Source of the DNA: Proteromonas lacertae
Taxonomy: Eukaryota
DNA: 40,087 bases
NCBI GenBank assembly: GCA_002245135.1
Contig: NGBS01001162.1
Coordinates: 310,001-350,087 of the forward strand
Direction: 5' to 3'
Shown here: positions 10,968-39,809 of the stretch, piece after piece
Layout: every line of letters begins with the position of its first letter
How positions within the stretch are numbered: the stretch's first letter is position 1
The notes under the pieces: generated by a model
Database searches by the model: none
What the model was told of the DNA's origin: nothing
Seen by the model: only the letters and a program-made list of their open reading frames with translations
Translations under genes and position numbers: made by a program

Positions 10968-11062
10968 TTTCAATACTAAACAACAAACGCTAATCAAACT
11001 TTGATTATCATTAGAAACGAGTATATTTTTGAATTAAAAAGATTTGAAAATTGTTTTTAATC

Positions 11063-11995
11063 ATGAATCGACTTATTCATATAGATAGAATATTTATTAA
11101 TAAATCTATTAGGCCAGGATCAATAGTTTCAAGAAGTTTCAGCACTGAAACAAAGAAGAAAGACATTCGAATTTATAAAGGTGAAGGTGTGAGTCCTCTT
11201 GGATATAAAATGACTAAATTCTCAATAGAAAAGTTTTGCAACTTAGACAAATACAATGTGAAGTCTATAACCCCAGAACAGGTAATATCTGAAGATTGGG
11301 AAGCAAATACTAAATTAATCGTATTTCCTGGTGGTAGAGATATGCCATACGTAGAAGCACTGAGTAATAATCAAGGTAAAAAAACAGGTGGTAATAAAAG
11401 AATTCGAAAGTTTGTAGAAGAAGGTGGTAGTTATTTTGGAATATGTGCTGGTGCCTATTATGGTACTGATCAAGTGCAATTCGATACAGGTGGAAACCTC
11501 CAAGTACAAGGTGAAAGAGAATTGAAATTCTTCCCAGGTATAGCTGATGGTCCAGCATATGAAGGATTTTCTTATACTGATGAGTCTTATGCAAGAAGTG
11601 TTTGGATATTATATCCATTCTTTTATCCTACACTAGTTGAAACAATTCTCACTGCCAGTTGTTGGTTTTTCGGTGGACCACATTTTAAACCTTATGTAAA
11701 GGATGATGATCGTTATAAAGTACTTGCATATTATTTCCCTCATACAAATAAGAATTTTACTGAAGATGATGCAATTGCTGCAGTATCATGTAATGTAGGT
11801 AAAGGTAAAGCTGTATTATGTGGTCCACATCCTGAATATGATCCTGAGATGATGCCTAAACATGCAAATGCTACTATGATGATGGATATGTCAGATCCTT
11901 ACTTTAATACTTGTAGAAAAATATACTTGTATATATTCATTAAATGTATATGTAGAATATCAAAATGGATTTTAGATTCGATATACAAGAATTAA
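11063..11995 (+). CDS. Stand-alone biotin-protein-ligase N-terminal (BPL_N, class I glutamine amidotransferase-like) protein
   Basis: Motifs IYKGEGVSP, VFPGGRDMPY, FVEEGGSYFGICAGAYY and GPHPEY. Arg/Ser-rich N-terminal extension. Possible in-frame 27-nt intron at 11929-11955. Confidence 0.8.
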   Translation: MNRLIHIDRIFINKSIRPGSIVSRSFSTETKKKDIRIYKGEGVSPLGYKMTKFSIEKFCNLDKYNVKSITPEQVISEDWEANTKLIVFPGGRDMPYVEALSNNQGKKTGGNKRIRKFVEEGGSYFGICAGAYYGTDQVQFDTGGNLQVQGERELKFFPGIADGPAYEGFSYTDESYARSVWILYPFFYPTLVETILTASCWFFGGPHFKPYVKDDDRYKVLAYYFPHTNKNFTEDDAIAAVSCNVGKGKAVLCGPHPEYDPEMMPKHANATMMMDMSDPYFNTCRKIYLYIFIKCICRISKWILDSIYKN

Positions 11996-13776
11996 GAGCA
12001 ATTGCTTTTCTATTAGTTTTTATTTATCATTTAAATTCTTATTTACTACCAGGAGGATATATTGGAGTTGATATATTTTTTGTAATAGCAGGTTATATAA
12101 TTACATTGTCTTTATGTAATACTCACATAATCAACAAAAGTTATATATTATTTTATTCAAGAAGAATAAAGAGATTGTATCCGTCTAGTCTAACTTGCCT
12201 TATACTATATTACAGTTATCATCCATCAATTACCAAATATAGCCATGATGAGACACAACTTTATTATGATATAATATCATCATTACTAAGTTTTTCTAAT
12301 ATTAGATTTTATAAAGTAACAAGCAGTTACTTTCAAAGCGAAAAAAAATCTATTATTTTAAATTACTGGTCACTATCATTAGAAGAACAATTCTATATAT
12401 TTTATCCTCTACTATATTTTTATCTCTATAACTATATTATTTATTTGATAATAATATTGTATAGTTTTTATAAATGTGTAATAAATACATATAAAAATGA
12501 TTCATCATCGTATTATCTTCTCTCTAATAGGGTATGGGAATTGTTAATAGGATGTATAATTAATAAATATGATGTCAAATATCATTTAAATAAGGAATTT
12601 GTAATTTGTATATTGATTATTTCATCATATGTAATAGGATTATCTACTATGTTAAAATTCCCAGGATATATTTCATTATTACCGATAATCCTCACGTCTT
12701 CAATCATTACACAACAAAATCATATACTATTTAATAGCAGAATACTTTATAAAATAGGAAATATGTCATATGTTTTATATTTGTTTCATTATCCAATCAT
12801 ACAAAACAATTCCTCTGTTTGTATAATATTATTAAAAATAATGTTGATATCTGTTTTTGTTTATCGTTATATTGAAATGCCTATAAGGAACGTAAGTAGT
12901 GTTTGTATATTATCGATAGTAAGCCTTACATTTTCATTCACATTTATTATCGTTATAGTTAAATCAATTAATGAAAATAAGAAACATCAAAAAAACAAAG
13001 CATATACTTATAATTATTGTTTTATTCAACTAAAATGTTATAATTCTTTTCTTAACAAATTGAATAGAAATACAATTCTGTTAATTGGTGATTCTCATCT
13101 TGGTCATTATCTACCTGTTATTAAAGCAACTCTATACAATTATAATGTTGATTATATATACTTTATTCAGGCATGGATTATAAACATAAAAAAGAATTAT
13201 ATCTTCTTATCTAAATATATAATTCAACAACAGAAAATTCAGTTATGCATTATGTCTATGTATGTTGATTATGAATTACTTTATACAAATAAAACTGAAT
13301 TCGAATATGCTTTTAAGTATTTGATAAAATCAATATTACAAATATCAGAAGGAATTATTATATTTCAAGATAATCCCCATAGATTTAGAATAAATGATAC
13401 AAAATGCAAAAGAGTATTATTACCAATATTAAAAAATAAAAAATTAACGTATATAGATATATTTAATAGATATTGTAAAGGAAGTAAACAATGCTTAGAG
13501 AATATCTATTCTAAGAATATATTTTCGGATATGCATCATTTGAATTTAAATTTTGTATGTCAAACAAAATTAATATACTCAACAATTAACTATGCTATAA
13601 CAAGATATTTAAAAATAAAAGTAAATAATAAAACCTTTTTATGTTATAAAATGGATATTTATTTTAATCACAAATATAATCAAGAATTTATAAAAGAGTA
13701 TAATATTAATACTATTAAATCAATAAAGTATGGATTATTTGGGTTTGATGAGACTCCTTTATTCGAATATATATAA
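11965..13776 (+). CDS. OafA/OatA-type O-acyltransferase (acyltransferase_3 plus SGNH domain)
   Basis: Motifs FRFDIQELRAIA, GGYIGVDIFFVIAGY, RRIKRLYP, WSLSLEEQFY and SYVLYLFHYP, followed by SGNH motifs GDSH and DMHH. Confidence 0.9.
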   Translation: MDFRFDIQELRAIAFLLVFIYHLNSYLLPGGYIGVDIFFVIAGYIITLSLCNTHIINKSYILFYSRRIKRLYPSSLTCLILYYSYHPSITKYSHDETQLYYDIISSLLSFSNIRFYKVTSSYFQSEKKSIILNYWSLSLEEQFYIFYPLLYFYLYNYIIYLIIILYSFYKCVINTYKNDSSSYYLLSNRVWELLIGCIINKYDVKYHLNKEFVICILIISSYVIGLSTMLKFPGYISLLPIILTSSIITQQNHILFNSRILYKIGNMSYVLYLFHYPIIQNNSSVCIILLKIMLISVFVYRYIEMPIRNVSSVCILSIVSLTFSFTFIIVIVKSINENKKHQKNKAYTYNYCFIQLKCYNSFLNKLNRNTILLIGDSHLGHYLPVIKATLYNYNVDYIYFIQAWIINIKKNYIFLSKYIIQQQKIQLCIMSMYVDYELLYTNKTEFEYAFKYLIKSILQISEGIIIFQDNPHRFRINDTKCKRVLLPILKNKKLTYIDIFNRYCKGSKQCLENIYSKNIFSDMHHLNLNFVCQTKLIYSTINYAITRYLKIKVNNKTFLCYKMDIYFNHKYNQEFIKEYNINTIKSIKYGLFGFDETPLFEYI

Positions 13777-13809
13777 TTAGAATATATCTTCATTAAACCC
13801 AAATGAAAT

Positions 13810-13858
13810 TACATTAGCTGAAATGATTAGAATATAATAATTATTAAATCTTTCTATG
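13810..13858. repeat. Short remnant of the palindromic element family
   Basis: TACATTAGCTGAAATGATTAGAATATAATAATTATTAAATCTTTCTA closely matches the reverse complement of about 16640-16687. Confidence 0.6.
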
Positions 13859-14333
13859 CAGTGTTTTGCAACTTACTTATACAGTATTTCCTAATACGTA
13901 ACGACATTTGTTGCAAAATAGATATACCATTGCATAACTATTATACCATTTTGCATAATACTTATATTTTTTATCAAGCCATTTCATTGTACATTATATA
14001 ATGCAAAATAAATATACAAATCTCAAGCCTTTTCAAGAATTTCTATTCTATTATTTTACAATAAGAAGTATGGATAGAGCGTTATATATCTATCCTCTTC
14101 ATAACAGTTCTTTGTATTATGAAGTTTATATCTTCAATAGTGCTAAAACATTCAGCAGGACTGATTGTAGAAAATATATTTGTTATACTTTCAAGTATTT
14201 GATTTCTGTTCTGGTAAATGCTTTTTTTCCATATGCCAAAGATATTTTCCTAATACAATTACTTTTAAAACAAACTAATATCATTTTTATCTTTGTTATA
14301 AAGAGTTATTATCAATATTAAACCAATTCTTTT

Positions 14334-14483
14334 ATATTTTCTATTTTAAAGTTTCAGTCACTACTACAGTCTAAAATACATTATTTGATATGAATAAATT
14401 TCAATAATTTTAATAACAACTTATTTAAAAAAGAAATTAAAAAGCTGGCTTGAGTGAGGCTTTAACTTTTTTTTTCTTTATTT
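14334..14483 (-). repeat. Truncated, inverted copy of palindromic element A including the central core
   Basis: Aligns to the reverse complement of about 15935-16090 (CTACTACAGTCTAAAATACATTA). Core GGCTTGAGTGAGGCTT at 14447-14462. Confidence 0.8.
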
Positions 14484-14499
14484 GCGGGAGGAGTGATCG

Positions 14500-15115
14500 C
14501 GCGCGATAAAGAAATTTGCTCGGTAAAGGAAGTAAGAAATTTCCATTAAAGTGAATATGTTAATACTTATTTGGAAGGCCGAGTAAATATAAATACAACA
14601 TCATTTTGTCTAATTTACTAAATATATTGAAATAATACTCAAATTTTCTATGATATTTATATCATCTATTATTAATCTTTATAACTATTTTATAATTGGA
14701 ATTGCTAGAGTATATTAGCATTTATGTCTCATTAACATATTGATGCATATATAGTGCCCTTTAAAAAAATATAGAAGAAAAAAGAAAATAAGGTCAAGCC
14801 TTCATCAAGCCAATATTTTATTTTTTATTTTAAATCATCGTAACACCGATTTTGTTTTATCTTATCATCAAAGAATTAATAACTCCATTCTCTTCCAGTG
14901 ATATATGCAATAAAAATAATGTTATATGATAGAAATAAGGAAGATGAATATGAAGTGAATATTTGTTAATAATTAAAGATAACTATTGTTCATGAATGTT
15001 TTAAGACAAAATGATTATATATTCATACATTACATGATGACATTAACAATAGTATTATATTAGATCTAAATATAAACAATTACTTCCTTTACCAAGCAAA
15101 TTTCTTTGTCGCGCG
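14500..15115. mobile_element. Degenerate palindromic element D (616 bp)
   Basis: 36-bp terminal inverted repeats at 14500-14535 and 15080-15115 with 2 mismatches. Internal inverted match ATCATTTTGTCT/AGACAAAATGAT. Central core CAAGCCTTCATCAAGCC at 14795-14811. Confidence 0.75.
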
Positions 15116-15117
15116 AC

Positions 15118-15450
15118 AGGACTGGAGCATTTAGCATTGAATAAAAGTGTATAACCAGATCCTTCAATCAACATTTTAACCTGGTCTGAATGATGGATAT
15201 TTACATTGTCCATAAAAAAGCAGAATTTACCCTTTGATTTTAGAGCATCTAATAAGTATTTCAAGTATGTTGTAAATACCTCAATACTATTTGGTCCGTA
15301 AATGGTATCACACCTATGAAAACCTAAATTAATCATAGTAGCTATAATTGTAATATCTGTAGCACCTCTAGCCATATGAACGATTGGTGTTGTTCCTTCG
15401 TCAGACCTTGCACATCCATTGACAACTCCCATACTCCAATGGGTTTCATC
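15118..15450 (-). pseudogene. IS630/Tc1/mariner (DDE_3) transposase fragment
   Basis: DETHWS...FFMDNVNIHHS...LLFNAKCSSP contains the first and second catalytic Asp. The sequence is cut by element D just before the expected SPxLNPIE Glu. Confidence 0.85.
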
Positions 15451-15659
15451 TTAGTTGTTGTGTGTTGTTCCCCTTTTACTTCCTTGAAATAATTCTTAAT
15501 AGGCTGTCTGTTATGCATAACAAACTTTGAAGGATTGAATGCAATAATATGATAAGTAACATTGGATGGATTATCACAATTAGGTTCAGCTTGGTTGCAA
15601 TACCCTTTAATGGTATAATACTGAACATCCTTATCATCTAAGGTGATGTAATTCTCGTT

Positions 15660-16282
15660 TGTTGTTCCCCGTATGTCTGAACTCTATATTGCAGAATGAT
15701 TCAATCAAAACTAATATGATATTCATGATGTTCGGAGTTAGTTATTAACAAATATATAGTTAGTTTGTCATATGACCTACATCTGTGATATACTTATTTA
15801 TGAACTTCATTATTATCAATATTAAACTAATTTTTGTATATTTTCAATTTTAATGTATCAGTGACTACTACAGGACTAAAATACATTATCTGATATAAAT
15901 AGAATTCATTATTTTTAATGTTAAGGCGGTTAAAAAATAAAAAAGAAAAAAGAAGTTCAAGCCTCACTCAAGCCTGCTCTTTAGTTTCCTTTTTTATTAC
16001 CTTAACATTAAAATTAATGTATTCTATTTATATCAGATAATGTATTTTAGACTGTAGTAGTTACTGATACATTAAAATTGAAAATATACAAAAATTAGTT
16101 TAATATTGATAATAATGAAGTTCATAAATAAGTATATCACAGATGTAGGTCATATGACAAACTAACTATATATTTGTTAATAACTAACTCCGAACATCAT
16201 GAATATCATATTAGTTTTGATTGAATCATTCTGCAATATAGAGTTCCGCCATACGGGGATTTCCGCCATACGGGGAACAACA
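15660..16282. mobile_element. Palindromic element A (623 bp, near-perfect ~270-bp arms)
   Basis: Ends TGTTGTTCCCCGTATG...CATACGGGGAACAACA. Arms are almost exactly reverse-complementary. Core CAAGCCTCACTCAAGCC at 15958-15974. 17-bp tandem duplication at 16244-16277. Confidence 0.9.
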
Positions 16283-16909
16283 GTTGTGCGCCGTTTGTCA
16301 TAGTTGGCCGTTTGTCTGCCAGACACTTTTAAAATAAACTAAATGTATATTCTTACTTGTCTTGATGAAAAATTGTTACTTTTACTTTTATACTTACTTT
16401 GTTATATGACCTACCTCTGCAGTATACTTTTTTGTTAATATAAATAGTTTGAATATTTGCGCCTTTTGTTTTCTAGAAATTATTGAAACAAACTAAATGC
16501 ATAATTAGCTAATATAGACTAAAATACATTAGATGAAATGATTAGAACAACTTAATGTTGATCACAAGACATTTAAAATTAAAAAAGAAAATATAGATTC
16601 AACCCTCCCTCATGCTTTCTTTTACATTTCTTTTTTTATATAGAAAGATTTAATAATTATTATATTCTAATTATTTTACCTAATGTATTTTAGTCTATAT
16701 TAAGCTAAATATACATTTAGTTTGTTTCAAAAAATTCTAGAAAACAAACAGGAGCAAATATTCAAACTATATATATTAACAAAAAAGTATACTGCAGAGG
16801 TAGGTCATATAACAAAGTAAGTATAAAAGTAACAATTTTTCATCAAGACAAGTAAGAATATACATTTAGTTTGTTTTAAAAGTGTCTGGTAGACAAACGG
16901 CGCGCAACA
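16283..16909. mobile_element. Palindromic element B (627 bp), directly abutting A
   Basis: Ends GTTGTGCGCCGTTTGTC...GACAAACGGCGCGCAACA with long reverse-complementary arms. Core variant CAACCCTCCCTCATGCT at 16600-16616. Confidence 0.88.
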
Positions 16910-16934
16910 CATGTAATAAACTTAAATAAATTAT

Positions 16935-17541
16935 CTATATTTCTTCCACATTTATTTTACAATGAACTGGATCTTCACCGTTTTTTAAATAACATTTGTA
17001 TTGATTACTACATTTGATATATATACATTTATTGTTATTTATAAACTGCAACACATAATTCTAGTAAGGCGCTGAAAAATTGAAATCTATTCCTTCTAAC
17101 TTTCCATCTTCATATAATCTCCTTACTTCGCTTGTGGCATCAGACGGTTGACTTATTTAAGTCATAAATTTAATGAAAAATGATAATGAAAATTATCAAG
17201 CGAAAAAGCTTGTTTGTTTTTCTTTGAAGAACTATTTCTCTTTTATAACTATATATTACTTCATAGTATGATTGTATTAATTATTATTATTAGCTGCATA
17301 TATCATTTTATAATCTTTTTTATATATGCAAGTTAATAGTGTCTTAAAATAGATTTTAACATTATATGGCTTGAAGTTTGACCGACCGAAGGTCAAGACA
17401 AAACAGAAAGGTTTTGACCGAACCTCTTCGGTTGACCGATAAATACAACACTGTGAAAATTTGCATAGGAATAATGAATGGAGTTATTCATGCAAAGAAC
17501 TATGATTAACGGCCAACTCTGACAAATAGCTCACAACAACA
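16935..17541 (-). mobile_element. Element E: a family-type terminus followed by a decayed ORF, possibly the 5' end of a coding element
   Basis: GGCCAACTCTGACAAATAGCTCACAACAACA ending at 17541 resembles the end of element C. Minus-strand frame 17165-16935 reads MT*ISQPSDATSEVRRLYEDGKLEGIDFNFSAPY*NYVLQF... with two premature stops. Confidence 0.5.
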
Positions 17542-17662
17542 TGTTACTATACATATTGTTGTGAGCTATCAAGTTTGAAATATTTATTAGAAATGTTAAA
17601 AACTATTCATATCAATTTTTTTATGATACTTTACATTCCAAAGAAATCTTATTTTATAATCG

Positions 17663-18698
17663 CTATTCTTTATTAAAGAATGTAATTATTTCATTTTTTA
17701 TATTTAATATTTTTTTCTTTTTAACTACATAGCTTAAATTGTATTTTCTATCTAACAACAACCCAGATTTTAAAACAGCAGTTAAACCAAATGTACTTCT
17801 TGATATTATAAGAAAACTACTTCTTGAAAGTATTTCATGTTCTATAATTATAGTAGTGTCATTTTAATGCTTCGCATAATGGTTTGTGATATTTTTGGAA
17901 TAAATAAATATGTTTTTATAAATGTTACTTAATTTAATCTTTAATTCTTTTGAATCTCCTGTTAAAAACCATTTACTTTTATAAAAATACTTAAACGCAA
18001 TCTTAATCATTGTATTTATTTCATTGTTATTTATTATTTGTTTTTCTTTCAGATCTGCATTTCCAACTCTCATTTGAATTCCAATAAAAGGCTTATTTGT
18101 TAGAATAGATAAATACTTATCTATTTTCTTTTCTATAGGTTTATTTATAATCAGCATTTTTGAAAATATTATATAGTATAAATAGAATGCATTCCATAAA
18201 TAATCAGCTCTTTTGTTTAATAATATGTACTTCTTTATATTTTTATAAAAATATATATCATTAGCTATACCAGTTGTTATGTCACACCATATGTAACTAA
18301 AGTATTTAATTTTCTTTTCAATACGTATGCTCTTTAGATTATTGATATTAAAAGGACATATACAAAATTGTGTTAGTTTTTCAATTTTAGTAGTTGTGAT
18401 ATTGTATTGAGGGAAATGATAGAATAAATCAAACTCATTCCAATTTAATACTAAATAGAAATAATAATGTTGCAATACAGTAAGGCTTTGACTGAAAATA
18501 GAATGACAATATAATTATTCCTGCAAATGACATTAATCTATTACCAAGTCCAGCAATAATATTTACATTCACTTCAGTTTGTGATGTTTTATACATTTTT
18601 ACTATGTTCTGTAAATTAATATTTGTATTTTTGTTATGTAATATAATTAAAATCAGAAAATTAAAACATAAAATAAGAAGTATAAATAATGTTTCCAT
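17663..18698 (-). pseudogene. Fucosyltransferase-like (GT11/GT23/NodZ fold) gene with an in-frame TAA
   Basis: TM anchor, AGLGNRLM, intron 18451-18478, IGIQMRVG and WFLTGDS. TAA at 17864-17866 is followed by 66 more open codons with EILSRSSFLIISRSTFGLTA, ending at TAG 17663. Confidence 0.75.
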
Positions 18699-18791
18699 AA
18701 GAATAATATACTAATATATATATTTTAAGTATTTGTATATATATATCTATAAAACGCAATCTAAATCGATAAATGATAAAAAGAAAAGTAT

Positions 18792-19940
18792 ATGTTTCAT
18801 TTATCTATTTTTATTGTATATATATTTATATCTTGTATATTATTATTAAAGAAAGTATATACATTATTTGAAGTGAGTTATACATGTAATCATCAGTGTT
18901 TATCAAAAATAGATAAAGATGTTTATATATACTATGCAAATATTAATAAAAAGCAGAATGAATTAATACTAATTGGAGTATCATTTCCGTATCACAGAAG
19001 AAATTATAAATGCAAGATTATTTATCAGAACTTTATTTCTTTATGTAACATCAGTTATAAACATAAATATAATATTAACAAGATAATGAATTTATCATAT
19101 ATATCGATACATCTATCACTAAGAACTATAAACAAAACTCCTATAGGGGTGTTTATAAATAATAAATATTTGCCGTTGATAATATATAAGCCTAATAGAT
19201 ATTACGATATTATTTTAGTAATAGTAAATTTTCATAATATTAGAAATTATAAGCAAGTTATTGATGTAATTGAAATATCGATAATCTATGGAGTAGATCA
19301 TATTGTTATGTATGTGACATCATCAACATTATTTATTAAATCTATATTGTATAATTATGTAAAAAGTGGATATATTGAATTACTACCATTCTGTTTTAAT
19401 AAAGAAATAAAATATGTTCATGAAACAGGACAAGTAGAAAAAATTAATGATGCATTATACAGATATATGTATAATACAAAATATATAATATTTCATGATA
19501 TTGATGAAGTTATCATACCTATCACGATAAAGGATTATTTAAAGTTTATAAAATATGTAGATAATAATACAAGTGATATGTATCTATTTAAATCCAAATT
19601 ATTTTCATATGAATCTAAGGAATACAATTCTATAATAACGTATAAAGATTGTTGTTTTGTAAAAAATGGCTATGAAAAATACATAGTTGGCAATCTGTAC
19701 AAATATTCTATGCTTGATGTTCATATATATAAGGAATCTGTTCTACCTATAAAAATAAGATCTATAAATAAAAACTATGGATATGTTAGACATACTAGAT
19801 TCAAAGGTAAAATGTGTAATAAGCATTTAATTGATAATTCCTTAGATTATTTAGAAAAGCATTTGAAAAAAATATATAGAAAATTCGAAAAAATGTTTAA
19901 ACATAATGAAAAATTGTACTATTATGGTAAGAAATCTTGA
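18792..19940 (+). CDS. Glycosyltransferase family 92 / DUF23
   Basis: Signal anchor, YGVDHIVMY, GQVEKINDALY, DIDE and GYVRHTR. Paralog of 3137-4387. Confidence 0.8.
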   Translation: MFHLSIFIVYIFISCILLLKKVYTLFEVSYTCNHQCLSKIDKDVYIYYANINKKQNELILIGVSFPYHRRNYKCKIIYQNFISLCNISYKHKYNINKIMNLSYISIHLSLRTINKTPIGVFINNKYLPLIIYKPNRYYDIILVIVNFHNIRNYKQVIDVIEISIIYGVDHIVMYVTSSTLFIKSILYNYVKSGYIELLPFCFNKEIKYVHETGQVEKINDALYRYMYNTKYIIFHDIDEVIIPITIKDYLKFIKYVDNNTSDMYLFKSKLFSYESKEYNSIITYKDCCFVKNGYEKYIVGNLYKYSMLDVHIYKESVLPIKIRSINKNYGYVRHTRFKGKMCNKHLIDNSLDYLEKHLKKIYRKFEKMFKHNEKLYYYGKKS

Positions 19941-19976
19941 TTTTGGTAATGCTTGTGTGAGTTATTTATACTTAAT

Positions 19977-20858
19977 ATGATTAATATTTTTCTTTATTTA
20001 TTAAGCATTTTAATTTTTTATCATTATTTTATTCAACTGGAAAGAATAAATAAAAAAAATGGCAAAACATTTATGTATGAATATTTATTTGTTACTTCGT
20101 TTTATGTAGGTAAATCTAAATATACAACAGAAAAATATAAAATGTGGATAAATAATTTCTCCGTTTTAGTAAAGCGCAACTTGTACATATTTTGTAATAT
20201 AGAAGGATATAAACTCATAAATCCAAAGTTGAAAAAGTTTGTTAGAGTTATAAATGATGTATTTGACTTAAGAAAAATAAATGACTATAAGTTTTCATAT
20301 AAAAATATGTGGAAGTATGATCCAGAAAAAAAGAGGCATAATTATAGATTGTATGCTATATGGAATGGAAAAATTAGTATGCTAAAATATGTATCTGAAC
20401 ATCTTAATAGTAAAATATATATGTGGATTGACATTGGTTGTTACAGAGAAAATAAATACTATTTCAATTTTCCATCACTTAAACAAATACATTTTTTGCA
20501 GAATATAACACAAAATTCGTATATGTTTTTCTTTCAATTGTATGACTTCCCTAATATACATAGTAACAATATTACATTAATTACCAAAAACTGCATTGAA
20601 GGAGGAACATTTGGTGGTTCACAATTAGGGATAAGTAATTATTATTATACATTTTTTTCGTTACATGATAAATTTTATAGAGAGAAATATTTTGTGGGAA
20701 AAGATCAAACATTGTACAATACAATTGCATATTACAATTTAAGCAAAGTTGCTTTATTAAGATATAAATCACATAGTTGTAATGATAATATATGGTTTAG
20801 ATTCTTAGATTTTTACGCTGGTTCATATTGTGCTAATGTTAACGTTATTTACATTTAA
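19977..20858 (+). CDS. HtrL/YibB-like putative glycosyltransferase
   Basis: ATG at 19977, TM anchor, and motifs IWNGK, MWIDIGCYR, GGTFGG and FVGKDQ. Confidence 0.7.
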   Translation: MINIFLYLLSILIFYHYFIQLERINKKNGKTFMYEYLFVTSFYVGKSKYTTEKYKMWINNFSVLVKRNLYIFCNIEGYKLINPKLKKFVRVINDVFDLRKINDYKFSYKNMWKYDPEKKRHNYRLYAIWNGKISMLKYVSEHLNSKIYMWIDIGCYRENKYYFNFPSLKQIHFLQNITQNSYMFFFQLYDFPNIHSNNITLITKNCIEGGTFGGSQLGISNYYYTFFSLHDKFYREKYFVGKDQTLYNTIAYYNLSKVALLRYKSHSCNDNIWFRFLDFYAGSYCANVNVIYI

Positions 20859-20908
20859 ATAATTAAGCAAATATTAGTAAAATTAATAGAAATTTTCAAT
20901 CATTTATA

Positions 20909-21661
20909 TTGTTATTTGAAATTATATTTATCTATAATTTATATTATAATAGTTTAAATACATGTAGCATATCTTTAATAATTCCAGCTACATATTCAAC
21001 TTATCAAGCATGTAAAATTAGAATAATGAGAATGATTCTTAAATCTTCTATGTTACCTTATGAAGTTATTATTGTTATTAGTGAAAATAATTATTCATAT
21101 TTTAGAAAATCCAAAATAAAAGGGAAATTATTATTATTATACTATATGGCTGGAAAACATAATCAAGCAGAAAATAGAAATGCAGGTATAAAATTAGCAA
21201 AATGTCAATATATATCTTTATTTGATTCAGATGATTATATGTCCAAATACAGAATAGAAATAATTTATAATATATTTAAAAGAAATAGAAACATAGATTT
21301 GTTATTGCATTCATATACAAACAATATGAAGTTAATATATGATAAAAAGAGCATAAATTATAACATAGATCAAATGTTATATAATTATACTCCTACTGAT
21401 ATATATAATTCATATTATAGAAATATAAAATCACCTATTCATGCTAAATATTGTTGCAATTTCTTAAACAAAAGGTTGAATATCCAAAATGCATGGCTGT
21501 CAGGAAAAACAAATCTGCTGAAGAGTTATTATTACAATGAGTCTTGGGAGTATTATAGATTAGAAGATACAGAATTGAACTACAGATTAATTATGAATAG
21601 ATATAATTTAGCTTTGATAAAATATAATTTAGGTGTATATATTTCAAAATATAAATGTTGA
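20909..21661 (+). CDS. Glycosyltransferase family 2; start codon unresolved
   Basis: Motifs SISLIIPA, PYEVIIV, NRNAGIKLAKCQYISLFDSDD and ED. No in-frame ATG precedes the domain. Confidence 0.8.
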   Translation: MLFEIIFIYNLYYNSLNTCSISLIIPATYSTYQACKIRIMRMILKSSMLPYEVIIVISENNYSYFRKSKIKGKLLLLYYMAGKHNQAENRNAGIKLAKCQYISLFDSDDYMSKYRIEIIYNIFKRNRNIDLLLHSYTNNMKLIYDKKSINYNIDQMLYNYTPTDIYNSYYRNIKSPIHAKYCCNFLNKRLNIQNAWLSGKTNLLKSYYYNESWEYYRLEDTELNYRLIMNRYNLALIKYNLGVYISKYKC

Positions 21662-21722
21662 ATGATTATTATAAGCGAAAATAATAAGTAACAAAATATA
21701 AATAATGGTAAATAGTTAGTAT

Positions 21723-22709
21723 ATGATAGTATATTTATATATATATTTACTGATACTATTTATCTATGTTAATATTTATATAGAGTATAAACTAAAAAGG
21801 AAATGTAATTTGACTATGGTATTTCCTTTCAATAGCAAAGATGGTCCAGGTAATTTAGCATACTATATTAATGAATCTATAATCGATTGGAATAATTCTG
21901 AATATGGTAAATATTGTAATATATCATTTGTGAAACATATATCATTTTTGAATGTAAAATATTTTAGCAGAATGAATACATATGTATGGTTTCAATCACT
22001 TTTGTATCCTATAAATAGCGATTTTAATTATAATAAAATAATTTATGGCCCTAATGTATCACCTATAAAATATTTATATTTTCCTTTAAATAATACACAT
22101 GAAATGATGTGGATACATATAATTAATAAAATAAAATACTATATAGTTCATCATTATAGAGTAGCTTATCATCTCATGAATAGAACCAACTCTTTTTTTC
22201 AATATAAAAAGTATTTAACATTTCCATGTTGCATAAAATATTCATATGAAAAAAATATAATAAAAAAATGGGATGAAAGAAGATATGACTTTGTAATATA
22301 TGAAAAATATGTTGATCGTAACCATAAAAACGATGGCAAAATTCTTATTCATTCACTAAAAGAATTATTCAAAGTAAGTGTTTTTAAGTATGGATCATAT
22401 CAAAGAAATGATCTATTAAAATATAGTAGAGATTCAAAAATTGTAATATACTATTCATTTTATGATACTGGAGCTCTAGCATTAATCGAAATGCAAAGGA
22501 TGGGTGTATATACTGTAGCTTTGCAAAGTGAGTTTGTAACAAAAGTTAATGGAGTATTTTTGCCAGAATTGGAAAGTAATATTACATTAGCTGTTAAAAA
22601 ATTAAAAGAAATAATTAAATTAAAGCATGATTCACATTATTTATCAGAATATAACAGGAAGAGATATGATTGCAAAAAATATTTATATAATATTATTAAA
22701 AAATTATAG
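21723..22709 (+). CDS. Putative GT-B (GT4-like) glycosyltransferase, type II membrane
   Basis: TM anchor, GPGNL, YGPN and C-terminal SFYDTGALALIEMQRMGV, resembling the GT-B nucleotide-sugar-binding helix. Confidence 0.5.
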   Translation: MIVYLYIYLLILFIYVNIYIEYKLKRKCNLTMVFPFNSKDGPGNLAYYINESIIDWNNSEYGKYCNISFVKHISFLNVKYFSRMNTYVWFQSLLYPINSDFNYNKIIYGPNVSPIKYLYFPLNNTHEMMWIHIINKIKYYIVHHYRVAYHLMNRTNSFFQYKKYLTFPCCIKYSYEKNIIKKWDERRYDFVIYEKYVDRNHKNDGKILIHSLKELFKVSVFKYGSYQRNDLLKYSRDSKIVIYYSFYDTGALALIEMQRMGVYTVALQSEFVTKVNGVFLPELESNITLAVKKLKEIIKLKHDSHYLSEYNRKRYDCKKYLYNIIKKL

Positions 22710-22722
22710 TTAACTTTAAGTA

Positions 22723-23759
22723 ATGTTTTTTATTTCTGTTATATTTTGTAGCATGATAATATCATTCCATATACTTTTTGTAACTTTATATTTTTATATT
22801 TTGGTTATATTATTTAATGATTATTATTCTTTAATGTATATATATATTCAACCCAATATTGGATATTATCCAAATAATGGAACTGGCTTATTTACCAAAC
22901 TTATAGGTTTAGGTTCTGTTATTGGATTATGTATAATCAGAAAAAGAGGACTAATATGTAATTTTTATAGCATATATATATAGTATATAGATGGAATTCG
23001 TTTCATGATTACTTTCATATAAATTACAAACACAAATATATCGGTCAAATGTATAATACATCAAATAAAATGATTGTCAAATTAAACAGTTCTATGACCA
23101 AAGAAAGTTTACTTAATAATTTAATTATCTATTCATATTCATATAATCTAATTATTGTTGATCCTGGTAATATAATTTTGTATTTAAATGAAAAATATAA
23201 TACTATTCTGAAAAATAGAATAAGGTGCGAATATCATTCTAATGATTATTTTTTTCATTACTTTTTTCGTAAAGTATTAACATTTTCATCACACATACTT
23301 CATAGATTTACCAATTACAAAGTATTTCATTTTATTAACCAAAATAATTTGACTACAGTAGGAGTTCATATAAGATTAGGAAAATTTGGTGATTTTCATG
23401 AAAAAAAAGCAACATATTTTGCTAATTCTAAATCAGTATCACAATTTAATTATACAATTATTGAATTAATAAAGAATTATAATGTTCAGTATGTAATTTT
23501 ATCATCTGATTCATCTTATATAACCAAGAATAAAAATAACAAATTAATTATTATAAGGAATATATTAAAATCTAAGAATATAAAACACTCAAACAATTGG
23601 TATTTTAAACCAATTAATAATGATTCAGTAGAATGCCTATTAGAAATTTATATGTTAAAAATGGCAAAATACTTGGTACTAACTAAGAACAGTGCATTTA
23701 GTAAAGTAGCATATTATATGAACAATAATTGTAATGCAAATAAATGTATTTTTATTTAG
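22723..23759 (+). CDS. Fucosyltransferase-like (GT11/GT23 fold)
   Basis: Intron 22958-22983 joins ORFs 22723 and 23049 in frame. Motifs TGLFTKL, VGVHIRLG, ILSSDS and LVLTKNSAFSKVA. Confidence 0.75.
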
Positions 23760-24826
23760 TAATAGTTACAATGTTGAAAGTTTTTCCCTACAAATAAGAT
23801 ATTTTTATATTCACATCTACTAAAATAAGAAGCAAATAATGAGAAAGTGCTTCCTCTAGTTAGTATAAGGAAATTAGCATTTTTCATAATCATTATATCA
23901 ATCATTGATTGATTTATGCATACTATATTTCTACTATGACAAGGAAGATTGTTATCAGTGTAAATATGATTTCCTAACTTTTTCTTCATTTCAATTTTAT
24001 TAACTAATGAATCTGACAATAATACATTTTTTGTATAATTTGATTTTTTTAATAACATCACTAAATAATCAATATCTGCTTTATTTAAATATTTTTGAAA
24101 TGGTTGATTATCAACATCACCAATTCTCAAATGAATAGCATTGTATTTATCATTCATTGAAAAAAGGTAAATCTTAGTAAAATAGTTTCTTATTATGTTT
24201 GTGAATGAAGAAGATATTTTAAAATAATAATTACAAATTATTTTATTTATCATTCTAATATTAACACTTATGCTTCTGTCTACTTTATTAAGTAAACCTT
24301 TATTTTTTATTAAATTGTTATATCTATTACTTTTTAATATATGCTCTGTAGAATACCAATGTTTATTAGCTCCAATAAGATTTAATTTAGATTCTAATGC
24401 TAAAATTCCATCAGAAAAATAAGCCATATTATCAAATGTGATGTTATAATATTTAATAGGGAAATTGAAATAATACCATAACATTTTCCATGATACTAAA
24501 ATATAAAAAGATTGATATAATAGATAATACTAAATAGCGATCTGTTTGATATTAATGATACAAATATTGAGCTTACAGCTTGTAGTAACGAATTTCCTAA
24601 ACCCTAAAGTTGAAGAGATTATAATAAATATTACTCCTAATTTAATATTATCAAAAAATGCAAATCCAACTTTGGATTGATAATATGCTTGTGTTATTAA
24701 TGCTTGATTTTTGATATGATATAATAAAATATTACGAGTATTACTTAATTCATATCTATATAAATTGTATACACATATTATGTATAAAAATAATATAAAT
24801 AAAAACCAAATCACCTTAGTTTTCAT
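23756..24826 (-). CDS. Fucosyltransferase-like (GT11/GT23 fold)
   Basis: Introns 24604-24634 and 24496-24530 give GGLGNSLLQAVSS...ISWKMLW. Motifs AIHLRIGD, LLSDS and LILTRGSTFSLFA. Confidence 0.8.
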
Positions 24827-24895
24827 TAATTATTATTGTAGACTGTACATAAATTTATGTTGTTAAGATGAATAACAATTTTATGATATAAAAAA

Positions 24896-25861
24896 ATGAT
24901 CATAAAAAGATTAAGTATATATATTCTTACTATATATATTTTATATACAATGATTCTTTATTGTTATTTTAATGATATTACTTTCATTCCTATAAAAATA
25001 AAAGAAAACAATTTATCACATTTATTTTTGGAATCAATAAAGAATTATAATCAGATTATTCATCATATAAACAAGTTATATATGAAGGTAAAAAATTTAG
25101 AAGGTAAAAGAAAAGCAGTAATTGTTCTATTGAATTATAAAGAAATAAAGCCATTTATAAATAGAAATTATTTATTTTTAAAACAGAACTACCATGATAA
25201 GTTACTATTTTATGTTACAGAAAATAAATCTCTTGTAGAACAATTCAAAAATATTCAATATAATGTAATTGATGTTTCAGATATATTTTTTTCTTTTCCA
25301 TTTAAATTTAATAAATCATATTACATTTCTACTTATAGAAAAAGAGGGAAATGGAATTATCAACATATGTGCAGATTCTTCTTTAGAGATATTTTTTTAC
25401 ACCCGTCACTTTTTGATGTTGATTTATGTATGAGACTTGATTCTGAATCATTATTAAATACATCTGTTAACTTATTCGACTATATGATAGAAAAAAGAGT
25501 ATATATGCACAACAGAATATTTAATGATGCTGATTTTGTTGTAAAAGAACTAAAAAACTACACTATATCTTTAGTGAAAGGATTAAATATAAAAGTAAAA
25601 GATAAATCAAGATATGATTTAACTTTTAAAAATACTGTTTTATCATATTATAATAATTTTGAAATTTGTAGAATGAATTTTTTTAGAAGTAAAGAAATTT
25701 TTCAATTTACAAATTTGGTTGATTTAAGTTATGGACAATTTCTTTATAGATGGGGAGATGCTCCTCTTAGATACATTAGTTTATCGTTGTTTGCAGAGCA
25801 TAATTCAAAAATATCTCTACCTAGAAACATACAATATTGTCATAAAGATTGTCCAAAGTAA
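24896..25861 (+). CDS. GT15 alpha-1,2-mannosyltransferase-like (KRE2/MNT1 family)
   Basis: Motifs YQHMCRFF, MRLDS, YNNFEI and YRWGDAP, with a TM anchor. Confidence 0.9.
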   Translation: MIIKRLSIYILTIYILYTMILYCYFNDITFIPIKIKENNLSHLFLESIKNYNQIIHHINKLYMKVKNLEGKRKAVIVLLNYKEIKPFINRNYLFLKQNYHDKLLFYVTENKSLVEQFKNIQYNVIDVSDIFFSFPFKFNKSYYISTYRKRGKWNYQHMCRFFFRDIFLHPSLFDVDLCMRLDSESLLNTSVNLFDYMIEKRVYMHNRIFNDADFVVKELKNYTISLVKGLNIKVKDKSRYDLTFKNTVLSYYNNFEICRMNFFRSKEIFQFTNLVDLSYGQFLYRWGDAPLRYISLSLFAEHNSKISLPRNIQYCHKDCPK

Positions 25862-26279
25862 TTAATTTATAGAGAGTGTTTTGCTCAGTGATTATTTCTC
25901 CTTATCATTACCACAATATTTTAGTTAATAAGAAGTAATATATAGAAACACAAGCTGCATAATAAATTATATAATAAAGGTCGATTTAAGTCATTGATCG
26001 ATGAAGATATAAATATAACCTATTGGTTTTTGACCGTTCTATACAACCTTACTAATATTCATAGATTAATAATATATATAGATAGATAATTCTATGAATT
26101 ATATAAAATTGAGAAGAAAAACATTGTAATATACTATTCTATCATTCCTTAAAATAGTCATTATAATTTGATTCATTTAAATGATGTTCTATATTATCAA
26201 TATATCCTAATTTTGTATAATTAATTTTAAACTTCTTTATAGTTATGCAATTATAGAAATAATCTCCTTTCTTTTGTTC

Positions 26280-27061
26280 CTATAGAATAAATATTTTTAA
26301 TACAATTGTCATTTTATGTTTCTCTAATTCTGTTATACTTAGATGTATAGCTTTTATTAAGAAAGTAGCATCTATAGCATTATCATTCTTTTTCTTTAAT
26401 ACTAATGCTAGTATTATATTATCATATCTTACTCTACCAACAACTATATTATTTAGTATTATCTTATCTTTATATGAAAATGTATATTGAGTAAATATAA
26501 AATAATCTATACCACATCCTGGATGAAGCCTTGATCTTTTCCAAATTGAATCATGATTAATAGTGCTGAATATATTTCTCCAATAAATATCTCCTCTTTT
26601 ACCTACTATTAGTAATTGTTTATTGTAAATTCTTTTATCTGATGCAATTATATTAATTAATTTATATATATTTTGATGAAAAAGAATATCTGAATTAAAA
26701 TATACAATTACTTTACAATTAGTAATAGTTATTGTTTCAACAATCATAGGATAAAAGTAAGGAGTACCAAAGCTGTTATTTCTATATATACTAAATTATT
26801 AAAATATAGATACTTTGAGTATTTAAAATATTTGCATTTCCTACATGAAATATTATACACTGCTATATTGCTTTGATAGTATATTGCTACAACACCATTT
26901 CTTTTGATATTATTATTTAAATTATAAATGACAATATTAAATATATCATGATTAAAATACTTTAACGGAGGTAATGTTGTTATGAATGAATAGTCTAATT
27001 TTTGGAATTGTTTATTACATAAAAAAATTGTTCTAATTATATTACTTATAAAAATAATCAA
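26280..27061 (-). CDS. Uncharacterised GT-A-like protein, possibly a pseudogene
   Basis: An intron from donor 26813 to acceptor 26791 or 26782 joins the two ORFs. Motifs NSFGTP, YFNSDIL, GIDYFIF and VGRVRYDN. No in-frame ATG, and the 3' end may be frameshifted. Confidence 0.55.
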
Positions 27062-27130
27062 AAATATAGATAAATTATTTATTATTTTATTGTTACAAAT
27101 GGAAATGTGGATTGAACTAACAATCGATAA

Positions 27131-27880
27131 ATGTGTCTTAATATGAATAAAAATCTATCTGAATATATTGCACTTATATTCTTAATGTTCGATTGTATTA
27201 TTTATCTTTATAATAGATCTTACAAAAATTGCTTCAATATTGCTCATGGATGTGGATTGCTTAATAATATTACATATACAAATGCTTTAGAAGCTTTTTA
27301 TCATTCTTATGCTAAAGGTTATAGACATATAGAAATTGATTTACAAACTACAAAGGATGGTCATATTGTAGGAGCTCATGACTGGATGAGATTTAGATAT
27401 TTAACTAACTCTAGTTATAATGAAAGCATGAATTATGAATTTATAAAAAGAGGAAAAATTTTAAATAAATATCACATAATATATGATAGTATGATATTTG
27501 AGCTATTAAATAGATTTAAAGATATTACTATATTTACTGATAAAATTACAAATTATTTAATATTAAAGAAATACACTAAAATAATTAATAGATTGTATGT
27601 AGAAGTATTTACATATCACCAATACAACTATTCAAAGACTCTTGGATTTACTAATGTTATGCTAAATATAAATTCAGGAATAGATTTAATTCGCTTTTAC
27701 AAATTAAAATATAATTCAATAACAGCTATAACTATAGGACCATCTTTATTTTATTCACATAAAGACTTATTGCAGAAATTATTCAGAAAAAATATAAGAA
27801 TATTTGTCTTCTTAGTAAACAATGTTTCAGCTATTAAATCTTCGTTTTGCAAATATGTTAATGGATTTTACATTGATTAA
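27131..27880 (+). CDS. Glycerophosphodiester phosphodiesterase (GDPD) family protein, bacterial type with N-terminal anchor
   Basis: IAHGCG...YTNALEAF...IEIDLQTTKDGHIVGAHDW and C-terminal GFYID. Confidence 0.88.
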   Translation: MCLNMNKNLSEYIALIFLMFDCIIYLYNRSYKNCFNIAHGCGLLNNITYTNALEAFYHSYAKGYRHIEIDLQTTKDGHIVGAHDWMRFRYLTNSSYNESMNYEFIKRGKILNKYHIIYDSMIFELLNRFKDITIFTDKITNYLILKKYTKIINRLYVEVFTYHQYNYSKTLGFTNVMLNINSGIDLIRFYKLKYNSITAITIGPSLFYSHKDLLQKLFRKNIRIFVFLVNNVSAIKSSFCKYVNGFYID

Positions 27881-28015
27881 TATTCTTAACAACATAATCT
27901 TAATAATAACCACTACTTTCAGAATAATTATTATGAAAATGAATTAAAATAAGTTTGAAAAAATACAAAGAAATGAAGATAATACTTATATATCCTATTA
28001 CATGTGAATGAGATT

Positions 28016-28023
28016 AACAAACA
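28016..28023 (-). promoter_or_regulatory. TGTTTGTT motif downstream of the DUF229 stop (Blastocystis-type polyadenylation element)
   Basis: Exact TGTTTGTT about 40 nt after the stop. Variants TGTTTGTA at 1623-1630 after MFAP1 and TGTTTGTG at the end of tetraspanin 3. Confidence 0.45.
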
Positions 28024-28064
28024 AAACTCATTTTTGATTTAACTGATAATTATTATATTTTATC

Positions 28065-29677
28065 TTATTGATGTATTTTTATGCTTGTTGGAAATTCCAT
28101 ACATTGTTTTGATATTAGTTCTGCATCATAGTTATCATTATCAAGTTCTTTTTTTCCAACTCTGCATGAACAACCAAATTTTACTCCTTGATTTGCACAA
28201 TTTCTTTTGCTAGATATTCTCTCAAACAAACTAGTACCTTCATATATCTTATTAGTTTTTTTTCTCTATAGATTAATTAATGTATATACATTCCCTAAAT
28301 GAGCTAAGTCTATCAATGTTTTATGAATATCAAATGCTGTAATGAATTTATTTTGATTAGCAAGCAAATTTCTTTTAATTATTTTATTTGTTTCTGTAAA
28401 TGACTTGGGCAATATCTAAAATATTAATTTTAATGCTAATAGAATACTAAGAATAGAAGAGGAAGTGAGTGATCAAGCTTGCCAAACTAAATGATTTAGA
28501 ATTACATAATATATACTTCGGTATTATAATAATCGCCATATTGAATTCCATGATCTGCTGTTATAACAATTACGCTTTTCTTCATTATTCCGTTATCATT
28601 TAAATATTTTATGTACTTGTAGAAATCATTATCAAGCCTTGGAACAGATTTTAAATTTTTATCATGTGAATCCATAAATAACAATTTTGAAAATACAGGT
28701 TGTTTTTTTGAATGATAATATTTTAAAGCCTGTTTAAGATAATTAAAATAATGCTTATGAATCTGTTTTTCTCCCAAACAACGTGTTTTACTAGAAAATA
28801 TATATTTAATGTAAGTAGAATCACAAGCAGGTGGATTTAAATTATGATCTGAACCAGTATAATTATTATTTAAATAGAATTTTTCTGTTACATCACATAC
28901 TAAATGAGCATTTATTGTTATATATTTTTCTTCTTCAAAATCTTGAAATAATATTCTGTGTATGGAATCATTTCTTTCTGATGTATTATATCTATATCCA
29001 TAGAATAAAGCAGCAAAATGTGAAAAGGAATTATAATCAATTGAATGATATTTTAGCATATCAAACATGCTATACAAATGTTTTATGCTTTTTAAATATT
29101 TTATAGTTTTTAATAATTGATGCTTTAATACAAATCTTGATCCTCCGTCAAACATTATAAAATGAACTGATAACTTAGTTCCATATCTTTTTAATTTTAT
29201 TTGACGTGGTATAAAGTGAAAGAACCATTGTGATTTGCTATTTCTGCTGTTATTATTAAGTTCTGATATTTCTATTATTTCTGATTCTATATTGGCTTTT
29301 TCACCCATCTAATAGGTTTAAATATAGTGTAATACTTTTAAATTCTTTAAATACATGTAATATTTTTTGTTTTTTACTTGGTGCTGTTTTACAATTATAT
29401 TTGAATATGCTAATATTGTGTTGTTTATTATTGAAATAGAATAAGTAACATTAGGACATAATACATTTTTTTGACTAGAAGTAATATGAAATCTATTCAT
29501 TGCTTTGCATGGTAACTGACATGAATCATTAGTTGTATCATATTCAACATCATTTAAAAAGCTGCTGCATAAACTTGTACTATTATATCTTCTCTTAGTT
29601 ATAGTTTTATACTTTCTGTTAATCAATATTAAAAAAACAAATAAAATTAACACTAAGAATAGATACATATAATTCAT
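28065..29677 (-). CDS. DUF229 / alkaline-phosphatase-superfamily membrane protein
   Basis: ATG at 29677, intron 29309-29335 and three further small introns at about 28270-28515. Motifs MFDGGSR, ITADHG, ITAFDIHKTL, GTSLF and RNC...CSC. TAA at 28065. Confidence 0.8.
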
Positions 29678-29745
29678 GTTAAAATTACTAATATGGAAGA
29701 AAAAAGAAAATAAAAGAATGGTATATGTAATATTCACATAATTTA

Positions 29746-30256
29746 TGTTGTTGTGCTCCGTTTGTCATAGTTGACCGTTTGTCTACCACACACTTTTAAA
29801 ACAAACTAAAAGTATATTCTTACTTGTCTTGATGAAAAATTGTTACTTTTATACTTACTTTGTCATATAACCTATGTCTGCAATATACTTTTTTGATAAC
29901 TTTAGTAGTGTATATATGAAACACATTATTCTAATTTTTAATTTTAATGTTTCATTCGCTACTAGAGACTAAAATACATTAACTGAAATGATTAGAATAC
30001 TTAAATTTTAATTTGAAGACCCTAAATGTCTTTTAGTCTTTAGTAGTGATTGAAACATTAAAATAAAAAATTAGAATAATGTGTTTCATATATACACTAC
30101 TAAAGTTATCAAAAAAGTATATTGCAGACATAGGTTATATGACAAAGTAAGTATAAAAGTAACAATTTTTCATCAAGACAAGTAAGAATATACTTTTAGT
30201 TTGTCTTAAAAGTGTCTGGTAGACAAAAGGCCAACTCTGACAAACGGCGCACAACA
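29746..30256. mobile_element. Palindromic element C (511 bp, B-like, core deleted), flanked by TA
   Basis: TA|TGTTGTTGTGCTCCGTTTGTC...GACAAACGGCGCACAACA|TA with ~230-bp inverted arms. The outer ~140 bp are nearly identical to element B. Confidence 0.9.
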
Positions 30257-30565
30257 TATATTATTATATAATTGATGTGTTATTAGTTTCAAATTATAAT
30301 AATAATTAATGAGTTTGAATTAGAAAATGAAATAATTAAAGAGTATTTATGTGTAATTATTAAAGCCACTATTCTTCTATAATATTTTCATTCATAAATG
30401 ACATATGTTTTACATTTGAAATATTACACTATTTACTATATAGAAAAATAATCTAATCACTAGAATGATATAAAATTTGTATTATATTATATAGCATTTA
30501 GTATTAAACGGATAGTTATTTAGTATTGAATATTATATAAATTCTTTTATATTTTAATAATTTAG

Positions 30566-31076
30566 TATATATAGAAATAACAGCTTTGGTACTCCTTACT
30601 TTTATCCTATGATTGTTGAAACAATAACTATTACTAATTGTAAAGTAATTGTATATTTTAATTCAGATATTCTTTTTCATCAAAATATATATAAATTAAT
30701 TAATATAATTGCATCAGATAAAAGAATTTACAATAAACAATTACTAATAGTAGGTAAAAGAGGAGATATTTATTGGAGAAATATATTCAGCACTATTAAT
30801 CATGATTCAATTTGGAAAAGATCAAGGCTTCATCCAGGATGTGGTATAGATTATTTTATATTTACTCAATATACATTTTCATATAAAGATAAGATAATAC
30901 TAAATAATATAGTTGTTGGTAGAGTAAGATATGATAATATAATACTAGCATTAGTATTAAAGAAAAAGAATGATAATGCTATAGATGCTACTTTCTTAAT
31001 AAAAGCTATACATCTAAGTATAACAGAATTAGAGAAACATAAAATGACAATTGTATTAAAAATATTTATTCTATAG
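30566..31076 (+). pseudogene. 5'-truncated duplicate of the GT-A-like gene (second exon only)
   Basis: Identical 155-aa ORF. The duplication breakpoint lies inside the gene's intron. Confidence 0.7.
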
Positions 31077-31494
31077 GAACAAAAGAAAGGAGATTATTTC
31101 TATAATTGCATAACTATAAAGAAGTTTAAAATTAATTATACAAAATTAGGATATATTGATAATATAGAACATCATTTAAATGAATCAAATTATAATGACT
31201 ATTTTAAGGAATGATAGAATAGTATATTACAATGTTTTTCTTCTCAATTTTATATAATTCATAGAATTATCTATCTATATATATTATTAATCTATGAATA
31301 TTAGTAAGGTTGTATAGAACGGTCAAAAACCAATAGGTTATATTTATATCTTCATCGATCAATGACTTAAATCGACCTTTATTATATAATTTATTATGCA
31401 GCTTGTGTTTCTATATATTACTTCTTATTAACTAAAATATTGTGGTAATGATAAGGAGAAATAATCACTGAGCAAAACACTCTCTATAAATTAA

Positions 31495-32460: not shown

Positions 32461-32529
32461 TTTTTTATATCATAAAATTGTTATTCATCTTAACAACATA
32501 AATTTATGTACAGTCTACAATAATAATTA

Positions 32530-34633: not shown

Positions 34634-34646
34634 TACTTAAAGTTAA

Positions 34647-35633: not shown

Positions 35634-35694
35634 ATACTAACTATTTACCATTATTTATATTTTGTTACTTATTATTTTCGCTTATAATAATCAT

Positions 35695-36446: not shown

Positions 36447-36496
36447 TATAAATGATTGAAAATTTCTATTAATTTTACTAATATTTGCTTAATTAT

Positions 36497-37380: not shown

Positions 37381-37416
37381 ATTAAGTATAAATAACTCAC
37401 ACAAGCATTACCAAAA

Positions 37417-38566: not shown

Positions 38567-38659
38567 ATACTTTTCTTTTTATCATTTATCGATTTAGATT
38601 GCGTTTTATAGATATATATATACAAATACTTAAAATATATATATTAGTATATTATTCTT

Positions 38660-39688: not shown

Positions 39689-39809
39689 CGATTATAAAAT
39701 AAGATTTCTTTGGAATGTAAAGTATCATAAAAAAATTGATATGAATAGTTTTTAACATTTCTAATAAATATTTCAAACTTGATAGCTCACAACAATATGT
39801 ATAGTAACA

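Follow-up and report, generated by a model that had tools for sequence, protein, structure and literature searches.

The window analysed here, a stretch of DNA of 40,087 nt, contains a family of long-inverted-repeat palindromes (elements A, B and E, and fragments of similar elements; Table 1). With a probability of about 0.6, these are non-autonomous foldback DNA transposons served in trans by a Mutator-like mobilizer, with element D as a distant relative and with a 57-bp centre that would act in cis as a protein site, helpful but not essential. Taken singly, the identification as non-autonomous foldback transposons is very probable, while the mobilizer can be called Mutator-like only tentatively, at somewhat short of even odds. 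All results for the family come from this one window, and the four central cores from a single 2.2-kb nest within it.

The window is 23.9% G+C and CG-poor (CpG observed/expected 0.44), with eukaryotic gene content. Twelve of 22 ORFs scored above the Pfam cut-off; the genes include MFAP1 (closest match 43–53% identity), two tetraspanin-like pieces, TenA, BPL_N, an acyltransferase-SGNH, and many glycosyltransferases. A tRNA scan of the window found none, and Rfam gave no matches at gathering score. Within otherwise gene-dense DNA there is a 4-kb stretch without genes (13777–17863). To its left, the bacterial-type BPL_N and acyltransferase-3/SGNH genes at 11051–13776 are candidates for lateral transfer, which the Atlas taxa do not show. 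To its right, between family ends F and E, lies a dense and apparently intron-poor glycosyltransferase-like island (17864–29737; GT92, GT2, GT15, weak GT1, GDPD, DUF229, and further ORFs without assignment) with 21.7% G+C, compared to 26.9% in the genes to the left; it is possibly a transferred or transposon-borne cluster. Positions 17263–26808 and 30548–40087 are inverted duplicates of each other, 99.8% identical over at least 9.5 kb, and E sits in the 3.7-kb spacer between them. In the second copy, 14 single-base gaps and three mismatches are confined to the last 3.9 kb before the window end, and ORFs are split; this is either a recent duplication or a long-read fold-back, with a noisy consensus.

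Table 1. Palindromic elements, central modules, TCAAGCC sites, and transposase remnants in the window. Positions count from the first base of the window.
Feature	Position	Strand	Description
Element A	15660–16282		623-bp palindrome with TGTTGTTCCCC ends; 17-bp subterminal repeat once at left, twice at right
Module of A	15938–15994	+	A-tract, core CAAGCCTCACTCAAGCC (15958–15974), T-tract; loop region of the foldback
Element B	16283–16909		627-bp palindrome adjoining A; (T)GTTGTGCGCC ends; 17-bp repeat twice at left, once at right
Module of B	16580–16636	+	Degenerate core CAACCCTCCCTCATGCT (16600–16616)
Element D	14496–15117		TIR of 36 bp (14500–14535 / 15080–15115) with 17-bp periodicity; ends uncertain by a few bases
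Mirror-placed box of D	14600–14611 / 15004–15015		Arms otherwise unpaired
Module of D	14775–14831	+	Core CAAGCCTTCATCAAGCC (14795–14811)
Element E	29749–30256		B-type palindrome of 508 bp, complete, both arm boxes present; a central deletion took the module
Half copy H	14306–14482	-	Inverted inner arm and module, A-type, 85% to A; core 14447–14463
Fragment G	13806–13857	+	B-type inner-arm piece of 52 bp, 92% to right arm of B
F	17508–17569		Head-to-head pair of truncated B/E-type termini with an 18-bp gap; duplicated at 39782–39843
Terminus stubs	15456–15473	+	B-type (TGTTGTG) adjoining A-type (TGTTGTTCCCC)
DDE_3 (Tc1/IS630-type) transposase, broken	15116–15450	-	Catalytic part; residues 187–298 of homologue P0127
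Same transposase gene, C-terminal part	14085–14249	-	Residues 302–360 of P0127; lies beyond D and H
TCAAGCC pair	13974–14040	+	Sites 13974 and 14023, downstream of the transposase stop
TCAAGCC	17368–17374	-	In a repeat-bearing, CAGTG-type end-like stretch (17371–17453)

A and B are self-complementary, as the original prediction had it, with arm-versus-arm z scores of 29–32 and 22–25, respectively. The two spaced boxes said to be shared by the arms of A, B, and a third copy, C, were found in A, in B, and at 29749–30256; E is probably that third copy. A fixed length was also proposed, but E is complete and about 115 bp shorter than the others, without a core. The arms of A and B are not unrelated sequence but diverged homologues, 63–64% alike. 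Nor are the ends unconserved, as had been implied: A, B, and E all have TGTTG termini (seen at A, the right end of B, E, and F) and 17-bp subterminal repeats. A lag of 17 was the best among lags 14–21 in all six ends tested, both ends of D included, and the number of units varies between ends, with one versus two copies in A and B. B has in addition an internal duplication at 149-bp spacing, present in both arms. Arms in A, B, and E are about 240–290 bp long, so that inverted repeats of hundreds of bp are present; three full copies and three fragments are dispersed over 40 kb with differing flanks, and no coding capacity was seen in any of them. On the minus strand, stop-poor frames lie on either side of A and B (15474–15659 and 16938–17156), possibly one decayed gene split by insertion of the pair. 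Neither the 65-residue frame at 15465–15659 nor the frames to the right of B gave anything above the Pfam cut-off, and a word-based protein search with the 65-residue frame was without match.

Within a copy the arms are 97.7% (A), 90.6% (B), and 94.1% (E) identical, counting gap-free columns for A and B, while between copies of A, B, E, and H identity is about 61–86%. In four-way alignment columns, both arms of one copy agree against those of the other at 73 of 240 positions for A and B, 61 of 220 for A and E, and 31 of 220 for B and E; side-specific columns, in which left goes with left, number zero in all three comparisons. At the level of aligned columns, then, the two arms of each copy are shown to evolve in concert, which bears out the suggestion that they are homogenized within each copy. 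Differences between arms cluster close to the ends and the centre. Mismatch-free tracts run through the middle of the arms, significantly so in A (184 nt; P = 0.0025) and E (139 nt; P = 0.0001) but not in B (P = 0.11); they are as expected of conversion tracts, although assembly polishing could contribute to them. The arms might be equalized when a folded element, as hairpin or cruciform, copies one arm onto the other. The centre, as the loop, would then be the only part out of reach of arm copying and the one most prone to deletion, as in E; a length of ~620 bp would simply be two ~285-bp arms plus the module.

The four cores, three on the plus strand and the inverted one in H, were all found where they had been claimed. 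Allowing up to three mismatches, the core pattern has four matches in the window sequence against a shuffle mean of 0.30, with one of 100 shuffles reaching four; none of 3000 shuffles of D contained a match to the core of A at the same tolerance, and a core profile derived from A, B, and H scored the centre of D at 19.3 bits, compared to 10.6 for the best of 20 shuffled windows. From the two ends, the core is offset by 295/304 (D), 298/308 (A), and 318/293 (B). D and A agree at 39 of the 57 module positions (14/20, 14/17, and 11/20 by part), and outside the module identity drops to 3, 3, 5, and 9 of 20, delimiting a 57-bp unit with sharp borders. The description of the core as TCAAGCC repeated at 11-bp spacing is exact for D and A and holds with one mismatch for H, but B is degenerate (TCAACCC / TCATGCT). 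That the centre is better kept than the arms is, similarly, true by a wide margin for D versus A, but not for the A–B 17-mer (13/17 identical; 27.5% of alignment windows are equal or better), nor for E, which has no core; the whole 57-column module of A and B is in the top 1.6% of their alignment. To that extent, two of the outcomes that the original prediction had named as speaking against it, a core kept no better than the arms and a length that varies, have been partly observed.

TCAAGCC itself occurs eight times in 13800–17600, where 0.2 would be expected, and twice in the remaining 26.7 kb. Three of the eight belong to no core but to end-like stretches of transposon DNA; one of these, at 14023, is core-like (TCAAGCCTTTTCAAG) yet scores only 2.3 bits by the core profile. 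A host promoter or 3′-end signal was considered and rejected: no exact TCAAGCC or GGCTTGA lies within 150 nt of the ends of 24 ORFs, and one-mismatch matches near host ORF ends are at background level. That it recurs in nearby transposon ends but not at those of host genes suggests a protein site acting in cis, a reading that rests on four copies in one window; for the 57-bp module as a whole, selection as a protein site is predicted at roughly even odds. A conserved hairpin RNA, as had been proposed, is not borne out by the predicted structures: seven of eight folds are not significant and none is common to all cores, and a G–U stem that A and D could form on the minus strand is broken in B. 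The Pol III B-box has the consensus GTTCRANNC, which only the first heptamer of A fits. There was no sign in the window sequence of an origin, centromere, or nicking site, all of them suggested originally.

Two end-like stretches lie nearby. The first, at 13859–13970, starts with CAGTG / TA-CAGTA and contains a 19-bp tandem repeat as well as several copies of TTGCA; the DDE_3 element probably ends here on its downstream side. The second, at 17355–17455 on the minus strand, starts with CAGTG and carries three TTGACCGA repeats and one TCAAGCC; it is perhaps a further Tc1/pogo-type end.

Element D had also been described as self-complementary, but only its TIR is (94%); past 46 nt its arms give a z score of 2.5, inside the shuffle range, and with 36 bp it does not share the long TIRs of the foldback class. 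Each of its arms does carry an exact 12-bp box, at offset 101 from its own end, a result matched by 4 of 2000 shuffles. Along the ungapped diagonal 75 of 154 positions (49%) are complementary, versus 53 expected (P = 0.0002), with the excess confined to the first ~112 bases (37/88 at offsets 112–200, P = 0.16; none beyond 200). A TTTGT[CT] box is at offset 108 in both arms of D (as TTTGTC in the mirror box), 105 in the left arm of A, and 111 in E. Around this box the right arm of D matches the A arms at 27 of 40 positions, a value reached by one and none of 100 block shuffles, these being two significant pairings among 12. Comparisons of whole D arms with other arms gave z scores of at most 2.9 in 12 tests, and the arm profile scored 5.0 bits on D, inside the null range (up to 7.1). 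The box and the matches around it hint that D is a remote relative of A, B, and E with the same spacing, in which case its arms were never homogenized, or are no longer so. Its right end can be read as TGTCG, its left end cannot. Each end (14496–14507 and 15107–15118) is a perfect 12-bp palindrome (ATCGCGCGCGAT and TGTCGCGCGACA) that mirrors its own variant base; in a CG-poor genome, this is reminiscent of opened hairpin ends.

The centre might instead be a neutral relic between long TIRs, shielded in the loop, and present in D by common descent or by capture of an A-type middle. This is a serious alternative, though the odds are against it. It would account for the loss of the centre from E, the degenerate core of B, and an A–B 17-mer no better kept than many alignment windows; the broken end of H that carries the core is ~17 bp from D, and A- and T-tracts inflate identity. 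A recent local copy is difficult to reconcile, however, with a D module only 75% like that of H over 57 nt, and a relic of any kind with two TCAAGCC copies intact in D between arms near chance, at the same offset from the end as in A, and with three more copies in neighbouring transposon-like ends.

The DDE_3 transposase is 55% identical to homologue P0127, in which the catalytic spacing is DD34E; its two pieces, split at D and H, gave tblastn E values of 2e-39 and 3e-10. Because the gene breaks at the right end of D and resumes beyond H, at 14249, D and H (~870 bp together) are insertions in it. It is their insertion target, and was not shown to be a mobilizer. D and the family copies are nested insertions in a transposon nest. 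The homologues P0127–P0186 make up a DD34E transposase lineage, Blastocystis included, with 25–61% identity to the remnant; the only named relatives, in one of six clusters looked up, are Blastocystis proteins with ~32% identity, from which a Blastocystis-like stramenopile host may be presumed. A word-based protein search with the transposase piece found no match, and no viral locus was found for the homologue. The elements as MITEs of this neighbouring Tc1-type transposase were also considered and rejected: none has TA on both sides, their termini differ from those of the transposase element, and the gene is a target. The CAGT-starting stretch downstream of it, its putative end, does not match the termini of A, B, D, or E.

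Target duplications were found only as candidates, with none of 8–11 bp above the null. D is flanked by a candidate of 7 bp with one mismatch (AGGAGTG / AGGACTG; shuffle P = 0.014, post hoc), the A–B block by an exact 7-mer displaced 7 nt from the end of A, and E by candidates of 9–11 bp with two mismatches, whose score of 6.0 is at the 90th percentile of the null. No duplications of 13–27 bp flush with both ends were found in a scan of the elements. Five B/E-type ends adjoin YATRT or its complement, which would fit a 5-bp target instead; for a 4–5-bp RTATAY-like target, the flanks of E agree at four of five positions (TATGT / TATAT), and those of A and B give none.

No autonomous element or MULE transposase is present in the window. 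TIRs of MULEs are often hundreds of bp, and long TIRs with 8–11-bp target duplications are reported to mark them (PMC6446971); foldback elements are described as mostly Mutator, with TIR elongation as a possible origin (PMC4079207). In low-GC Blastocystis, presumed kin of the window's host, MULE transposase domains number 26, 4, and 15, and rve integrase 0, 0, and 0 (PMC12129017, Table S5). A Mutator-like mobilizer is favoured on these grounds: the TIRs are long, foldbacks are mostly Mutator, and low-GC Blastocystis proteomes have MULE domains and no rve. Three of five features of the foldback/Mutator-like class are found here, namely long TIRs, varying subterminal repeats, and dispersed insertions. 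Tm1 of Meloidogyne (PMC3169594) and Tetris of Drosophila virilis (PMC4079207) are similarly non-coding and nested, with long TIRs and subterminal repeats that vary between ends. Tm1 combines a variable number of subterminal repeats with a conserved internal motif, in Tm1-HH a histone hairpin, which gives a precedent for a conserved centre in a Mutator/foldback family (PMC3169594). As far as those descriptions go, the present elements differ from both in arms that are mostly non-repetitive and reach the 57-bp centre, in flanks that gave no clear 8–10-bp target duplication, and in a centre common to D, with its other termini and unpaired arms.

An integrase-type mobilizer (Ginger2/TDD, IS481EU, or Polinton-like), with the elements as TIR-only deletion derivatives, is unlikely. 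The TGTNR ends and 260–297-bp TIRs do fit Ginger2/TDD, for which TGTNR termini, TIRs of up to ~300 bp, and an AT-rich target are given (Bao et al., 2010, PMC2836005). No element, however, has the exact 4–5-bp duplication that would go with it; the flanks of A misfit; there is no integrase among the 22 window ORFs scanned; and the low-GC Blastocystis proteomes tabulated lack rve. The available part of Bao et al. (PMC2836005) describes no fully palindromic derivative with a common centre. IS481EU, with TIRs mostly <50 bp and target duplications of ~4, 15, or 25 bp, is reported from parabasalids (PMC10045372), and the long TIRs of A, B, and E do not suit it. The M1 and M2 units of Pithovirus are comparable by description only, as a precedent for palindromic units whose mobilizer is not known: they are AT-rich, palindromic, and MITE-like, with a 37-bp internal segment and two families inserted adjacently, but they are ~140 bp long, viral, have a TA target, and form arrays of thousands of bases (PMC10664404).

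It is much less credible that the nest is a centromere or replication-origin region, in which TCAAGCC would be a site for a host chromosome factor selected after insertion. The gene-free 4 kb does hold eight of the ten non-duplicated TCAAGCC sites, and dyad symmetry is there, but such gaps arise from transposon nests alone, every site is in transposon-derived DNA, and E, 13 kb away, lacks the motif. That the palindromes are sequencing or assembly fold-backs can be dismissed almost entirely: the 9.5-kb inverted duplication, with its single-base gaps and split ORFs, is a sign of noisy long reads, but the arms differ by 2–9% with indels, end at shared termini in unique flanks, and the three copies differ from one another symmetrically.

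For foldback transposons with a cis-acting centre, a mechanism can be sketched. A transposase would bind the 17-bp repeats and the TTTGTC boxes; the two TCAAGCC copies, set a helical turn apart and flanked at the midpoint by two bendable tracts, could bind a protein that helps to join the two ends or controls transcription through the element. Phage Mu (37 kb) has a strong gyrase site at its midpoint that helps pair its two ends, and the likeness to the TCAAGCC pair would be in function only, Mu being a phage that uses gyrase and nothing here pointing to topoisomerase binding. By this analogy, one could conceive of a ruler: repeats at the ends, a box ~105 bp in, and a protein-bound double TCAAGCC at the exact middle of ~620 bp, retained by families with diverged termini and arms, pairing or processing ends as the Mu site does, and reused in Tc1-type ends, with the perfect palindromes derived by arm conversion from asymmetric, D-like ancestors. 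So complete a scheme is distinctly improbable.

Pattern scans found no copies outside the window, in either metagenome or viral contigs; two prokaryote matches to one 19-mer were discounted as chance, similarity stopping at 18–21 bases. In the literature consulted, mostly open-access and with Repbase and Dfam outside it, such elements were not found described for Blastocystis. Nor did the mostly open-access search find a paper that joins palindromic MITEs with a conserved centre, or a midpoint module that a perfect foldback family has in common with an element of different termini whose arms do not pair. The module shared by D and the foldback family, with its four cores from one nest, is a lead. 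Should the elements prove ordinary, they would still add a foldback MITE family not described before, from a gut-protist-like genome that has received little study, and show clearly, on a small scale, how the two arms of an element evolve in concert. A functional centre would mean that a eukaryotic cut-and-paste transposon carries a cis-element at its midpoint; D and A would then be a natural before-and-after pair for the passage from short-TIR elements to foldbacks.
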